A stretch of DNA of 25,358 bases from Planctomycetota bacterium (lineage in GTDB: Bacteria; Planctomycetota; GCA-002687715; DRQF01). Below, piece after piece: positions 8,540-20,924 of the stretch. The stretch lies in NCBI GenBank assembly GCA_036479435.1, contig JAZGFI010000201.1:1-25358 (forward strand), written 5' to 3'. Both the position numbers and the translations under genes were made by a program. The notes below the pieces were generated by a model that worked only from the letters and a program-made list of their open reading frames with translations, was not told the DNA's origin and ran no database searches. Within the stretch, counting starts at the first letter, position 1, and the number at the start of each line of letters is the position of its first letter.

Positions 8540-8647
8540 CAGAGCTCTCCACAGCGGGATTGAAACAGATCCTCGGATTGCAAAGCGGTTTATTTTGAGA
8601 TTCCAAGATCGAGCCATGGTGGCGTGCTTTTCGCAAAGGGGCGGCCG

Positions 8648-9208
8648 ATGAATTCTCAACCGACGCGGGCCTGGATCAAGACCATCTCCTTCGAAGACGC
8701 CTCCGATGGCCTCAAGACACAGTACCGCAGAGTCTTAGATCCGCAGAGTGGGCGGCTGGATGCCATCATGGAAGTCCACTCGCTGCACCCGGCGGGCCTC
8801 AAGGCGCACTTTGGGCTCTACGCGGCGGTCATGAGGGGAAACGTGGCTTTATCGGCGGCGGACCGCGAGATGATCGCCCTGGTCGTGAGCAAGCTCAACG
8901 ATTGCCACTACTGAGTGGCCCATCACCGGCGCGGTCTGCGCCGCCTCCTTCGCGACGAAACCTTGGCAAGTGCCATCGAGGTCGACTGGCGCAAATCGAC
9001 GCTCGATGCGAAACGGCTTGCGCTGCTGACCTACGTTGAGGCACTCACTCTGCGGCCAGCCGCAATGAGGCGGTCCCATGTCCAAGCGCTTCGGGACGCG
9101 GGCTTTGAAGACGATGGAATCTTGGCTGTGGCTGAGGTCACGGCCTACTACGCCTACGTCAATCGCATCGCGGATGGGCTAGGGGTCGAGTTCGAAGACC
9201 CGGAATAA
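8648..9208 (+). CDS. AhpD-like / CMD-family peroxidase-related enzyme, probable selenoprotein (CxxU, U89)
   Basis: ORFs 8624-8914 and 8915-9208 are in the same frame, separated by one TGA (8912-8914). Joined: REMIALVVSKLNDCHY-U-VAHH...LTLRP...AYYAYVNRIADGLGV, the AhpD-like E-x6-S-x2-N-x-CxYC-x2-HH pattern with the second Cys as TGA. 186 aa. Confidence 0.88.
8915..8943 (+). promoter_or_regulatory. Putative bacterial SECIS element
   Basis: Hairpin CGGCGC (8927-32) / GGTCT loop / GCGCCG (8938-43). Loop starts 18 nt after the TGA and begins with G. Confidence 0.75.
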
Positions 9209-9511: not shown

Positions 9512-9803
9512 AGCAGGTCTCCTCGTGTCGCCGTAGCCTTCCCGGCCTGGCGGGGACGCCTCGGCGCCCTGTGTCATAACTGATTCAAAATTAGCGACTT
9601 AGCGCCTTTTCCTCGACTCCAATCCAGCCCTTGGAGCTGAAGTCGGGATCTTGGGAGAGGAGGTTAGCACGGCGACAAGCGGGCGAACAAGGCCTCTGGG
9701 CTCCCCCATGCTGGCTCTATCTCACCGCACTGCAAGAGTTTGGAATGTGGCTCGCATAGGATGCCGTCCTGGCTGCCATTCACCCCGTCCCTGGAGACTC
9801 ACG

Positions 9804-10199
9804 ATGATCCTTCGTTCCCTCGCTCTTTTGGCCCTCGCCGGCTCAGCTCTGAGCCTTTTTGCCTGCAGTGAAGCTGTGGTGAGCGACAAAAAGGCGCCGG
9901 CCGCAACTTCCAAGCAATCTTTGCCCTTGGTTCAGTACTACCAGATCTCTGAAAACTGAATGCTCTGTGGCCGTATCGCAACCGCCGTGAGCGAGTTGCA
10001 AGACGAATACCGAGGCAAGATCATCCTGAGAGTCGTCCAGGTAAACGATTCGAATCGCGACCTCATGAAAGAACACATGGACCCCGAAAGCCACGGCATG
10101 CTGGCCTTCGACCCCGATGGCAAGATCGTGGATAAGATCATCGGCCACAAGTTCGGCAAAAAGGAAATCGTGGCTCTGCTCACAAGACTGTCAAATTAG
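9804..10199 (+). CDS. Thioredoxin-fold lipoprotein, probable selenoprotein (UxxC, U52)
   Basis: ATG 9804 with GGAG RBS and lipoprotein signal ending LFAC (C21). In-frame TGA at 9957-9959 gives LVQYYQISEN-U-MLC-GRIATAVSELQDEYRGKIILRVV...MLAFDPDGKIV, a thioredoxin-like beta-UxxC-alpha-beta pattern. 131 aa. Confidence 0.82.
9978..9999 (+). promoter_or_regulatory. Putative bacterial SECIS element
   Basis: GCAAC-CGC / CGTGA loop / GCG-A-GTTGC hairpin. Loop is 26 nt after the TGA, with G at position 2 followed by U. Confidence 0.55.
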
Positions 10200-10248: not shown

Positions 10249-10304
10249 AAAAGAGACGATGGACGGGTCCCCCTGTGGATTCCCTTCCGTCGTCTTTTTG
10301 TTTT
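10249..10304 (+). terminator. Terminator-like hairpin
   Basis: AAGAGACGATGGA (10251-63) pairs with TCCGTCGTCTTTT (10286-98) using G-U pairs, followed by a T-rich tract. Confidence 0.6.
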
Positions 10305-10319
10305 GGGGATGAGAATCAA

Positions 10320-12383
10320 ATGTTCGCCTACCGCTCGATCACATGCCTTACTTTGTTGCTCTTGGTGCTGGTAAGGACAGAGCTGGTCGCGCAGGCCGAT
10401 ATTCTCGGCCCCTCGCAGAACCTGGCGTTCCCGTCATCCAACAATCTGGTCGGCGGCGATGACGCCTTGGCGATTGCGCCGGACGGCAGTTGGATGATCG
10501 CCATCGCGACGAACAGCAGCAACGCGGACGTCATCATCACCGAGTTCGATGCTTGCGGCGTCGCCGGCGTGCCTCAGCCTTTGCTCTTTCCCTCCAACGT
10601 CAACGTGTCGAGCGGCAACCTCGGCGCGACTATGGCGGAAGACAGTTCTTTTGCCGCGCTGATCGGAAACGGCGGCCTCGGTGATCTCGTCATCGTCCGC
10701 CCCAACTTCCTTGGTGTTTTCGAAGCAATCTTAGTCGACTACCCGGGTGGATCTGTGCCTTCGTTGAACACGCGCGCCGTCATCCCCCCTCACTCAGAAT
10801 ACGTCTGCACGATCGGAAACGGCGGCAGCAATGATCTTGTCATCACGCCGACGCCGCGCGACATGAACGGAGTCAGAACGCCCGGCGCTCCCATCGGACT
10901 GTCGTTTCCGGCCAGCAACGGCGTCGCGGCCTTCAATGGCGTTCGCCCGGCGCTGACTTTTGATGGCCGTTCGATCGCCGTGCCCGGTTCGATCACCGCC
11001 GGAGACCTCGTTGTCACTTCAGTGCCGCCCACGCTCGCGCCTGCGAGTTTTGTCAGCACCAACGTCCCCTATCCCTCTAACGGGTTCATCCCCAGCCCGG
11101 GAGCCCCGGTGCTCGCCTCGCCCGACGGCAGTTACTTTGCGACTTATGGCACCCAAACCGCTGGCGACATCGTCATCACGCCTTTGGACTTCGACGGCTG
11201 CCCCTTCGCGGCCGAGGCACGCCTTTTTCCGAACAACAATAACGTCTTCGACACCAGTACGGCCATTGCGGTGACCTGCGATGGCCGCCTGCTCGCGACG
11301 CGCGGAACTCAAACCACCGGCGACATCGTCGTATTGCCGATCGCCCTGAACGGAGTCCCCGGCAATGCCGTCAACGTTGCCTACCCCTCAAACAACTTTA
11401 TCCCGGCCGATGCCCCCCTCGTGGTCGCAGCGCCCCGTGGCACTTACTTTGCAACCGCAGGCTCAGGCTCCGTCGGAGATGTTGTCGTCACCGAAGTTGA
11501 CTACGACTTCTTTACGAACTCCGTTACTGCGACCGCAAGAAACGCCTTGTTTCCGGGGAACATCAACCGACGCGCCAACGCGCGCTTCGTGGTCGCCCCC
11601 GACAGCAGCGCACTCGTGACCTACGGCGCTTCAAGCAACACCGCCGACCTCGTCGTCATCCCGGTCGACGATAGCGGGGTCGTCGCATCGCCGTTTTCAT
11701 TGTTCTTTCAAAACAACGTCAACGTCGCGGCCAGTTCGAACGCGCCGTCCTTTGATCCCGGGTCCGACTGGGTGGTTTGCCCCACCAGCACCATCTCGAG
11801 TGATCTGGCCTTGGTGTCTTTTGCTCGCGACTTCAGCGGCTTCGTTGGCATTCGCGACGTGGAGCTGACGCAGTTTGCCGCTTCGAACCACGTCGCCGCT
11901 CTCGACAATGCGATAGCCATCGCTGGCTCGGGACAACTCATCGTGGCCCGCGGAAGCAACTCCAATATCGGCGACCTCGTGTCGACGCCTCTCGACGACG
12001 CCCGTTGCTTTGCCCTGGCCACACCCCGCGACGGCAACATCCTCCCCTTGCGATTTCGATCGCCTTTGGACGCCGGGCTCGACTACCTTGCCGCCCTTTC
12101 CTTCGGCCGATTCGCGGGCGTCGGGCTCAATGGCAACCTCGATCACATTCTTGAACTCGTGATTGACGAGTTGCTTTTGGCATCACTCGACCCAATGGCC
12201 CCAGGGCTGTTGGGTTTTCGGGGAACTCTCGATGGCGATGGAAACGGCCAAGGCTTCATCTTTTTCCCACCCGCGCCCTTTTTGAGGGGGCTGACGATCT
12301 ACACCAGTTTCATCACGCTTGACCCCTTGGACGCCGACGGCATCTCGAGAGTCGCTCGCACCCGCTCGCTAACCCTGAAGTAG
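10320..12383 (+). CDS. Secreted repeat protein (ten ~50-aa repeats, beta-propeller-like) with a separate C-terminal domain
   Basis: Signal peptide after ATG 10320. Repeats of the form [FY]PxxN...xPDGS...G...GD[LIV]V[IV]xP. Confidence 0.8.
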   Translation: MFAYRSITCLTLLLLVLVRTELVAQADILGPSQNLAFPSSNNLVGGDDALAIAPDGSWMIAIATNSSNADVIITEFDACGVAGVPQPLLFPSNVNVSSGNLGATMAEDSSFAALIGNGGLGDLVIVRPNFLGVFEAILVDYPGGSVPSLNTRAVIPPHSEYVCTIGNGGSNDLVITPTPRDMNGVRTPGAPIGLSFPASNGVAAFNGVRPALTFDGRSIAVPGSITAGDLVVTSVPPTLAPASFVSTNVPYPSNGFIPSPGAPVLASPDGSYFATYGTQTAGDIVITPLDFDGCPFAAEARLFPNNNNVFDTSTAIAVTCDGRLLATRGTQTTGDIVVLPIALNGVPGNAVNVAYPSNNFIPADAPLVVAAPRGTYFATAGSGSVGDVVVTEVDYDFFTNSVTATARNALFPGNINRRANARFVVAPDSSALVTYGASSNTADLVVIPVDDSGVVASPFSLFFQNNVNVAASSNAPSFDPGSDWVVCPTSTISSDLALVSFARDFSGFVGIRDVELTQFAASNHVAALDNAIAIAGSGQLIVARGSNSNIGDLVSTPLDDARCFALATPRDGNILPLRFRSPLDAGLDYLAALSFGRFAGVGLNGNLDHILELVIDELLLASLDPMAPGLLGFRGTLDGDGNGQGFIFFPPAPFLRGLTIYTSFITLDPLDADGISRVARTRSLTLK

Positions 12384-18554: not shown

Positions 18555-19181
18555 ATGCGCTTTTTCATTAGCTACCTCCTCATCGCCTGCATTTGCTTTT
18601 TCGGCTGCGGCCAAAAAGACCCAGTTTCTCCGTCAAAAAATGCGAGCCTAAGTTCCGTGCAAAATTCAGATGATCTCGATCTGGCGACTTTGGGAGCCGG
18701 CTGTTACTGGTGCATCGAGGCCGTGCTCTTGCAGATCGACGGTGTCGAATCTGTGGAGTCGGGATTCATGGGTGGACACGTCGTCAATCCCAGCTACGAA
18801 GATGTCTGCAGCAAAAAGTCCGGGCATATCGAAGTTGTACAGGTTCGTTTCGACGCATCAAAGATTCCCTACGAACACCTGCTGGCGTGGTTTTGGAAGT
18901 TGCACGACCCGACATCTTGGGACAAACAAGGTGGCGACAGTGGCCCCCAATATCGCTCCGCGATTTTCTACCACTCGGATGCGCAACGCGACACCGCACT
19001 GGCGTCGCTGAAAGCCGCCGAAAAGGAACTCGATGCAAAAGTCGTGACCGAAGTTCGCCAGCTCGCCGTCTTTTATCCCGCCGAATCCCAGCACCAAAAC
19101 TACTACGAGCGGAACAAAAGCCGGGGCTACTGCCGCTTCGTGATTGCGCCCAAGCTCGAGAAACTTGGGCTTAAGAAATAA
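18555..19181 (+). CDS. msrA: Peptide methionine sulfoxide reductase A with lipoprotein-like signal
   Basis: GAGCYWC, GHIEVVQV, HDPT, QGGDSGPQYRSAIF, FYPAExxHQNYY and GYC motifs. GGGAG RBS. Signal peptide ending FFGC. Confidence 0.93.
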   Translation: MRFFISYLLIACICFFGCGQKDPVSPSKNASLSSVQNSDDLDLATLGAGCYWCIEAVLLQIDGVESVESGFMGGHVVNPSYEDVCSKKSGHIEVVQVRFDASKIPYEHLLAWFWKLHDPTSWDKQGGDSGPQYRSAIFYHSDAQRDTALASLKAAEKELDAKVVTEVRQLAVFYPAESQHQNYYERNKSRGYCRFVIAPKLEKLGLKK

Positions 19182-19502: not shown

Positions 19503-20924
19503 ATGAATCCCAAAATGCGTAATGGCATCATTTGCCTCGCCCTTATCGCGAGCTTTACGTTACCGCTCATGGCCCAGGCCGGAGAAGAGCCCAACCTGGG
19601 CGCTACCCGCGTCACCCAAGCCGACATCACCGGTGGCGGCCTGTCGTTCATGGACATCCGCCTTGCGGGTCGCCGTATGTTTACGACGCCCTTCAACAAG
19701 CTCGATGGCTACGGCGTCGCCTACGACAAGAACGTCGCGGACCACACCAGCTTCTCCAACCGCCCGACTTTGCAGAACAACGGGACTTTTCTGCGCGTCA
19801 ACGGCTTGGACTCACAGTCCTGCAACGAATGTCATGGCATCGTCAGTCACGCCAGCATCCCCGCCGTTCTCGGCGTTGGTGGCGTCGGCGGCATCACCAG
19901 TAGTGCCATGTTCATGACTCGCGACATCGACGTCGACGACTCAGACCTGAACGGCTTTGCCTTTTTTGACGGTCGCCTCATCAACCCGCCCTTTATCTTC
20001 GGCGCGGGCGGAATCGAAGCCATCGGAAAAGAAATGACCACGGATCTGCAGGCCCTCAAGATGCAAGCCTTGCTCAACCCGAACACCATCGTCAACTTGG
20101 TCACCAAGGCCGTCAACTTCGGCACCATCAGCCACGACGGCAGCAACTTCGATTTAAGCAACATCCAAGGTATCGAAGAAGACCTCGTCGTCCGTCCTTT
20201 CGGACGCAAAGGCGAGAACTTCACGACGCGCGATTTTGACCGCGGTGCCATGCAGTTCCACTTCGGAATGGAGCCCGTAGAAGTCGTTGGCGCTGGCAAC
20301 GATGGCGACGGCGATGGCGTGACCGATGAAATCTTGATTGGCGAAATGAGTGCTCTGCATGTCTTCGCTAACACGCAAGTCAAACCGCGCATCGTGCCCC
20401 AAACCGGAGCCGGCTTTGGTTTTGCTCTGTTCTCATCGATCGGTTGCACCGAGTGCCACCGCCCGGTGATGACGACCCTCACCAACAACCACACCTTCTC
20501 GTTCCCGGACGTCGGCGATGATCCCTCGGCCAACATCTACGGCACGATCAGCCTCGCGTCCGCGCCGATGAGCTTCAACAACATCCCGGGTGGCGGCATC
20601 GCGGCATTCTGCTTTGCCGACCTCAAACGCCACGACATGGGCCCGGACCTCGCCGAGTCCTTTGGCGCCAGCATCGACAACGAGTTCACGACCGCGCGCC
20701 TTTGGGGAGTTGCGGACACCGCGCCCTACCTTCACGACGGACGTGCGCTGACCTTGACCGACGCCATCATGGCTCACGGTGGCGAAGCTGCGACGTCGAA
20801 GAACAACTTCGCTTCGATGCAGGACTTCGAAAAAGTCGCCATCCTCTCCATGCTGCGCTCGCTGCGCACACCGGAAAACCCGAACGCCGAACTCGGCGGA
20901 CCGGAAGAGGACATCAACAACTAA
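19503..20924 (+). CDS. Di-heme oxidoreductase (DHOR-like) family exported cytochrome c protein
   Basis: Signal peptide and two CxxCH motifs (CNECH, CTECH). RPFGRKG, DLKRHDMG and TARLWGVADTAPYLHDGRALTLTDAIMAHGGEA motifs. DGDGDG possible Ca-binding loop. Confidence 0.88.
   Translation: MNPKMRNGIICLALIASFTLPLMAQAGEEPNLGATRVTQADITGGGLSFMDIRLAGRRMFTTPFNKLDGYGVAYDKNVADHTSFSNRPTLQNNGTFLRVNGLDSQSCNECHGIVSHASIPAVLGVGGVGGITSSAMFMTRDIDVDDSDLNGFAFFDGRLINPPFIFGAGGIEAIGKEMTTDLQALKMQALLNPNTIVNLVTKAVNFGTISHDGSNFDLSNIQGIEEDLVVRPFGRKGENFTTRDFDRGAMQFHFGMEPVEVVGAGNDGDGDGVTDEILIGEMSALHVFANTQVKPRIVPQTGAGFGFALFSSIGCTECHRPVMTTLTNNHTFSFPDVGDDPSANIYGTISLASAPMSFNNIPGGGIAAFCFADLKRHDMGPDLAESFGASIDNEFTTARLWGVADTAPYLHDGRALTLTDAIMAHGGEAATSKNNFASMQDFEKVAILSMLRSLRTPENPNAELGGPEEDINN

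Follow-up and report, generated by a model that had tools for sequence, protein, structure and literature searches.

The window, by which we mean the whole analysed stretch of 25,358 nucleotides, carries on its forward strand a frame (9804-10199) that is open except for the TGA at 9957-9959 and reads MILRS...ISEN-U-MLC...RLSN over 131 amino acids. The sequence-only reading of this DNA had proposed a single frame with TGA readthrough that annotation would present as two small pieces, and both proposals were borne out: translation table 11 splits the frame into ORFs 9651-9959 and 9960-10199, and the protein library holds exactly the two halves, P0004 (residues 1-51) and P0002 (residues 53-131). 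The following features were assigned to the gene:

9793-9796 (+): Shine-Dalgarno-like GGAG, 7 nt 5' of ATG 9804, seen by eye
9804-10199 (+): predicted selenoprotein coding sequence, 131 aa, ATG to TAG, with one TGA read through (sequence and homologs)
9804-9866 (+): putative lipoprotein-type signal peptide (residues 1-20) and Cys21 (9864-9866) (sequence, regular expression, alignment)
9867-9923 (+): linker, residues 22-40, pLDDT 60-70, highly variable in length and sequence among homologs (alignment)
9924-10196 (+): predicted minimal thioredoxin-fold domain, residues 41-131, beta-alpha-beta-alpha-beta-beta-alpha (AlphaFold2, Foldseek, VIA-align)
9957-9959 (+): TGA, predicted Sec U52, first position of UxxC (TGA conserved in homologs; Cys in natural homologs)
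9966-9968 (+): Cys55, second (resolving-position) cysteine, in 143/144 family matches
9978-9999 (+): predicted bacterial SECIS-type hairpin, loop CGUGA at 9986-9990 (fold, covariation, synonymous-recoding control, published model constraints)
10092-10097 (+): His97-Gly98, with His97 at the thioredoxin cis-proline position (His 142/144, Gly 144/144; alignment register)
10143-10148 (+): Gly114-His115, second conserved His, at the end of the last strand (His 141/144, Gly 139/144)

No Shine-Dalgarno-like GGAG was seen by eye 5' of ATG 9960. Separate translation of the downstream half from this ATG, which the earlier reading had named as an observation that would speak against it, does not hold, as homologs do not conserve an ATG behind the TGA; Pro follows U in 111/146 rows. 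The TGA codon is covered without a variant letter by contigs of 4/4 sequencing runs, all four of which may be the source of this DNA.

The promoter scan at the gene gave none and the consensus terminator scan called none 3' of it; by eye, a long but imperfect inverted repeat with a run of T behind it, at about 10255-10305 (+), looks terminator-like. Directly 3' lies a gene (10275-12383, +) for a secreted-looking protein of 702 amino acids with repeated 'GDLVVTP/IP' units, for which no Pfam match was found at E 0.1. Two further exported redox genes are present in the window, one for MsrA with a lipoprotein-like leader (18555-19181, +) and one for a di-haem oxidoreductase (DHOR) protein (19503-20924, +).

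Reading of the UGA codon

As judged from the sequence comparisons, the gene is almost certainly a real selenoprotein gene in which the UGA at U52 is read as Sec. The presence of selA, selB, selC and selD in the genome had been suggested as a check, and all are there: selA (462.9 bits), selB, selD and tRNA-Sec were detected in the host genome (G000) over curated cut-offs, with selA, selD and selC grouped on contig C117, where selD itself has one in-frame TGA (33916-34842, -). TGA is the commonest stop of the long frames of the host (800/1792), thus it is normally a stop codon in this organism.

When 401 Planctomycetota genomes were searched with a protein profile at E 1e-6, 53 matches were obtained in 52 genomes, and 42 of them, from 41 of the 401 genomes, contain one TGA, which stands at the U52 codon in every excised locus. 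The match in G047, a genome of the host's phylum, is the protein P0077, which NCBI labels as Planctomycetota. The 11 matches lacking TGA comprise three Cys members (G122, G049, G232), one protein without U and C (G040), four ordinary thioredoxins and three that fall outside this sorting. Sec use is the rule in the sampled Planctomycetota (selA in 288/401 genomes). Among the TGA-carrying genomes selA is found in 40/41 (Fisher p 1.4e-5 against the overall frequency, a value overstated since kin are not independent), being missing only from G256, a genome that is 84% complete. Outside Planctomycetota, or in unlabelled genomes, selA accompanies the gene in 33/36 carriers, and the selA matches found there have no in-frame stop. 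A metagenome branch of the family was found with peptide patterns from which the Sec codon was excluded; there the TGA is present in 56/56 parsed motifs, representing 55 of the 60 loci, while three more loci have TGA and two were unparsed. Natural Cys homologs exist as well (P0010, P0017, P0018, P0022, P0025, L231, L244, L248), so the expectation that homologs would have TGA or Cys at position 52 was confirmed.

Under the competing explanation the TGA would encode Trp, would result from a sequencing error, or would be a real stop, the locus then being a pseudogene or a pair of small genes. We regard this explanation as very improbable. It could draw on the databases, which contain the two halves and also some full-length proteins with Trp at the Sec position (P0014, P0016, P0023, P0034-P0041), and on the reading of UGA as Trp reported for some Verrucomicrobiota in the accessible part of PMC13462651. 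However, the Trp forms look like gene calls reading TGA under code 4, since they come from short contigs and locus L070, which matches the Trp-form P0039 at 99%, has TGA in its DNA; homologs with genuine Trp, which would have contradicted the earlier reading, were thus not encountered. Further points against this explanation are that the metagenome motifs have TGA although this codon was not part of the search pattern, that TGA is the commonest stop in those loci (79/187), that the selA matches are free of in-frame stops, and that the SECIS hairpin is lost in the natural Cys homologs. The ORF coverage under code 4 versus code 11 (0.83 versus 0.63) is uninformative, as fewer stops always lengthen frames.

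The hairpin that had been proposed at 9978-9999 folds at exactly this place, with a 5-nt loop (CGUGA), 26 nt after the UGA and at -13.4 kcal/mol. Taken alone it is moderately better than shuffled sequences (z -2.6 for 9970-10006, z -1.4 for 9957-10020), and in view of this modest stability the case for a SECIS rests on conservation. It agrees with the bSECIS model given in the legend of Fig. 2 of PMC13188914, namely a loop of 3-9 nt with G in the first two loop positions, 16-37 nt from the UGA, and MFE <= -7.5. The three loop-closing pairs hold in 86/87 cells of 29 loci, with 13 double-sided changes; the covariation is 0.336 compared to 0.194 +/- 0.019 in shuffles (0/500 shuffles as high), and slid controls stay at or below 0.121. 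It should be emphasized that the hairpin occurs in exact register in 36/41 TGA copies versus 5.8 expected under synonymous recoding (maximum 16 in 20000 simulations), a count restricted to loci picked by the protein profile and partly in-sample, since the register was derived from 29 of them; it is in register in 0/4 non-TGA homologs. The synonymous-recoding control argues that the constraint acts on the RNA and not on the protein alone. The count on all 77 representatives (72 versus 14.5) is partly circular because their search pattern contains SECIS letters, and the 41-locus count was used instead.

Other candidate selenoprotein genes were also recognized. An AhpD-like, peroxidase-related gene 600 bp upstream in the window (8624-9208, +) is split by a TGA at 8912-8914 (C-H-Y-U) and appears to be a second hidden selenoprotein: a hairpin with a GGUCU loop follows 18 nt after the UGA, and the read-through protein reaches 126.3 bits against TIGR01926, a CxxU family catalogued in PMC13188914 whose cut-off is 81.8. 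Elsewhere in the host genome, likely selenoproteins are a DsbD with a C-terminal UxxC thioredoxin domain (C271 near 81513, -), a 469-aa exported UxxC protein resembling AhpC-TSA/TlpA (C141 near 13141, -) and a DUF3179 UxxC protein (C262 near 46936, +); the genes of these three share CGUG-type SECIS loops. SelD, with its in-frame TGA, is another likely selenoprotein of the host.

Fold, conserved histidines and export

In the AlphaFold2 model, computed with Cys for Sec, residues 41-131 have pLDDT > 90 and form the four-stranded mixed sheet and three helices, with the redox motif at the N-terminus of helix 1, of the thioredoxin fold class. The best structural matches are thioredoxins (Foldseek E 1.5e-5; VIA-align Z 12.7, rmsd 2.0, 88 residues), in accordance with the thioredoxin-like domain proposed earlier. 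The matches start near thioredoxin residue 17, so the first strand and helix are absent. When P0010 was searched against the ESM Atlas, only generic clusters, thioredoxin-like or hypothetical, were obtained.

The U-M-L-C active site described in the sequence-only reading is correct for this member, and as a family trait it did not stand: among 141 non-redundant loci, a set filtered on the His motifs, UMLC occurs once, the consensus being UPFC (54), followed by UPMC (29), UVLC (20) and UPLC (17). In this filtered set the two residues between U and the nearly invariant Cys55 are mostly Pro-Phe/Met/Leu, as in the active-site motif CPFC/CPYC of glutaredoxins. In the 144 unfiltered matches, from which the conservation of the histidines was taken, the cis-Pro position is occupied by His in 142, by Ser in one and by Lys in one, and never by Pro; the Lys belongs to a Cys homolog (L231) and the Ser to one Sec copy. 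The register of His97 was supported by a profile alignment in which it is matched, without gaps, to the Pro in the QTPT segment of P0024, a thioredoxin-like protein; against canonical thioredoxins it aligns near IPT, where the HMMER alignment has a gap adjoining it. The earlier claim that ESHG replaces the cis-Pro segment therefore holds. The second conserved histidine, in G114-H115, had been absent from that reading. Thioredoxins have Gly-Ala in the loop equivalent to the His115 position, and this loop presumably adjoins the cis-Pro/His97 site, as taken from the structure of thioredoxin. On the alignments, the family signature is His97 at the cis-Pro position together with His115, rather than UMLC.

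The N-terminus contains R4, a hydrophobic stretch and L-F-A-C21, in which the F at -2 is a departure from the strict lipobox. An N-terminal export signal is present in all members seen, whereas a lipobox-like Cys was detected by regular expression in 58/79 members of the non-Verrucomicrobiota type and in 0/62 of the Verrucomicrobiota type. These sequences are best explained by a lipid anchor on the protein described here and by a cleaved, soluble form in the Verrucomicrobiota-type branch. From the earlier description of an exported and membrane-tethered protein the export is retained for the family, and the lipid anchor did not stand family-wide.

Distribution and relation to known families

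A word-indexed search with the single protein returned only its own C-terminal half, and a profile search was needed for homologs. Named genomes were also scanned with a DNA pattern, which yielded 101 stretches; 78 of the 80 listed are family members, labelled mostly as Planctomycetota and Verrucomicrobiota (Akkermansiaceae, Verrucomicrobiales), with some Calditrichota-like and single others. Since this pattern contains the TGA and SECIS letters, the scan shows range and gives no support for Sec. The set of 146 member rows forms 42 groups at 50% identity. No longer, fused forms (329-2000 aa) were found among 7997 candidates, which is weak evidence. In a quick tree (96 columns, 48/90 forks open) a long branch (SH-aLRT 99) separates the 86 family rows from seven cis-Pro thioredoxins, and the Cys forms are scattered among the Sec forms, from which no direction of change is claimed.

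Several unusual members were observed. L104 (3100-3408, +) has two domains in tandem, its single frame containing two UxxC motifs and two SECIS hairpins, and P0086 is the middle piece of this tandem protein, between its two TGAs. L232 (G189:C10) and L170 each have two family copies within a few kb. The lipoprotein homolog L049/L032 (G040:C43 8360-8797, -) lacks U and C (R-R-Q-G), His115 and the hairpin, and keeps His97-Gly, so that part of the family can exist without the redox residues, a point that weighs against the redox function proposed below.

No Pfam or NCBIfam model (June 2026) reaches its cut-off, where a cut-off is shown. The query scores 18.6 bits on PF00085 (cut-off 23.5) and 16.2 bits on TIGR01068 (cut-off 96.8), NCBIfam models give members 18-23 bits against cut-offs of 65-140, and the best Pfam E value in the family is about 1e-3. 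Thioredoxin (PF00085, TIGR01068) and its catalogued UxxC form are alike to the window family in the fold (Z 11-12.7, rmsd 2.0-2.4), in the motif at the start of helix 1 and in UxxC with an in-frame SECIS; unlike them, the window family is exported, has no WCGPC, carries a second His besides the His for cis-Pro, begins after the first strand and helix of the fold, and remains far below the cut-offs. The small exported cis-Pro thioredoxin-like lipoproteins P0024, L245 and L249 share the lipoprotein signal, the linker and the minimal Trx domain (hhalign to P0024: probability 97.3, E 2.5e-11), but they have xPT at the cis-Pro site and Cys, and stand outside the family branch in the tree. Glutaredoxin (PF00462) is similar in its minimal fold and CPFC/CPYC-like dipeptide, and 16/34 members match it weakly (best E 0.0024); however, the match is below the Pfam cut-off, the glutaredoxin motifs TVP and GG are replaced here by xHG and GH, and the window family is exported.

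A His metal ligand stands at the cis-Pro position of Sco. Peroxiredoxins, with Arg, and Sco are likewise thioredoxin folds with a functional side chain at that position (for Arg, PMC2757866 in its accessible part), but the window family has no AhpC-TSA, Redoxin or SCO match (SCO at E 0.1), carries UxxC and not TxxC or CxxxC, and its model is without the beta-alpha insertion of the Prx/Sco/CMP subclass. SaoT (NF040730), TsoX (NF045809), HUIPC (NF047660), GOS_C and GOS Trx-like 1-3 of the 2026 catalogue (PMC13188914) are likewise thioredoxin-like UxxC selenoproteins. Family members score 18-19 bits on SaoT (cut-off 65); the best E values are 0.016 for TsoX and 0.039 for HUIPC, Uxx-star lies within E 0.016-0.1, and ArsF reaches E 5.6e-5 at best, in 4/34 members. 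The first sequences of each GOS class look unlike the window family, and none of 12 family motifs found a member in four GOS supplements (PMC2398784).

By the tests applied to these sequences, the family does not belong to the thioredoxin, glutaredoxin, Sco or named Trx-like selenoprotein families. Among the 119 families in Table 1 of the 2026 review (PMC13188914), none was recognized as a match on motif or model, though family members could be accommodated in its broad entries for Trx and thiol-disulfide isomerase-like proteins. Nothing identifying the family was found in the accessible parts of deep-Sep (PMC12013277), of BSepDB (PMC13326102, whose supplement is a genome list) and of a planctomycete genome paper (PMC4807772, 12 of 14 supplements), where the last gives two 'thiol-disulfide isomerase-like thioredoxin' candidates without a sequence to compare. 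Haft and Tolstoy 2025 was covered, via the scans, for families with NCBIfam models. The literature search found no paper on the family. We consider it quite probable that the family is undescribed, the catalogue entries having been compared by motif or model only.

It could also be supposed that the histidines are structural and that the protein acts as an exported protein-disulfide reductase or isomerase of the ordinary thioredoxin/TlpA-like kind, in which case it would belong with the 'Trx UxxC' or 'thiol-disulfide isomerase-like' groups of the catalogue. All fold and sequence matches are indeed thioredoxins, and by homology some members may already be filed in those broad categories (PMC13188914). 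Such an assignment nevertheless appears unlikely: no member seen reaches a Pfam or NCBIfam cut-off, the family is separated by the long branch from the cis-Pro thioredoxins of the quick tree, and the cis-Pro is absent from 144/144 matches.

Proposed function in the cell envelope

Given that the gene encodes a selenoprotein, the chemistry of the thioredoxin fold suggests a redox-cycling selenol/thiol oxidoreductase of the envelope which would be recycled by DsbD, and to this reading we assign a probability of about 0.55. In the proposed mechanism SelB and tRNA-Sec would translate through the UGA, guided by the hairpin 26 nt downstream, to give the exported thioredoxin-fold selenoprotein. Once in the cell envelope, the U52 selenolate would attack an oxidised substrate. 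Resolution of the U52 intermediate by C55 would leave a selenenyl-sulfide, and the selenoprotein would be re-reduced by a membrane relay of the DsbD type; the host does encode a DsbD with its own C-terminal UxxC domain. The scattered, non-operonic position of the gene fits a general envelope role: clustering of ORFs around 78 loci and the window revealed no conserved neighbourhood beyond near relatives. In contrast to a general protein-disulfide reductase, a specialised reductase or peroxidase would be expected with His97 and His115 flanking the active site, as the His at the cis-Pro site and the second His in the neighbouring loop point to a specialised site; the substrate might be small, and probably anionic or a peroxide. 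According to the accessible part of PMC2757866, the cis-Pro is more conserved than CxxC and is likely part of the substrate site, and in peroxiredoxins the Arg at this position lowers the pKa of the Cys. His97 may have much the same role as this Arg.

The main rival of the redox enzyme is a metal-binding protein, in which U52, C55, H97 and H115 would create an envelope Se/S/N/N site (for Cu, Zn, Ni or Hg) and which might act as a Sco-like chaperone, a metal buffer or a metal-dependent redox sensor; we regard it as possible, though on the doubtful side. The two near-invariant histidines, one of them exactly at the cis-Pro position, and the export of all members are in line with it. PMC2757866, with reference to Su et al. 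2007, gives the proposal that the cis-Pro keeps metals from binding at CxxC, and it is just this residue that is lost here; Table 1 of the same source also provides the precedent of Sco, a thioredoxin-fold copper binder. On the other hand, no client or metal gene is conserved nearby, as the Pfam matches of 112 flanking frames from 58 representative loci fall in families unrelated to one another, cation efflux being represented by one gene and clusters with Sco, oxidase or CopA by none; the spacing xx is unlike the xxx of Sco; and His97 is replaced by Lys in the Cys homolog L231 and by Ser in one Sec copy. The prediction of a homodimer with Zn for the Cys homolog P0010 scored 0.00, which is evidence neither way; ligands are unscored by the complex tool. 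More tentative still is the specific proposal that U, C and the two His together form the metal site of an envelope metal chaperone or sensor with a selenolate ligand, kept almost always in the Sec form.

Whether it is the redox-cycling oxidoreductase that we favour or a metal protein, this apparently uncatalogued selenoprotein family is carried by about one tenth of the sampled Planctomycetota genomes and also by marine Verrucomicrobiota and Calditrichota, while in protein databases it is represented solely by split hypothetical proteins and by false Trp forms. Members with Cys are rare (three Cys and one Cys-less versus 42 TGA in the phylum search), and this rarity may be the reason why screens for Cys/TGA pairs missed the family. 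The His-for-cis-Pro site offers a natural, small and soluble test of why thioredoxins keep their cis-Pro, and with the family one can ask whether a selenolate combined with histidines creates a metal site or a reductase pocket of a new type. The family also points to the use of Sec in the cell envelope of these phyla, in a host that has several exported selenoproteins.
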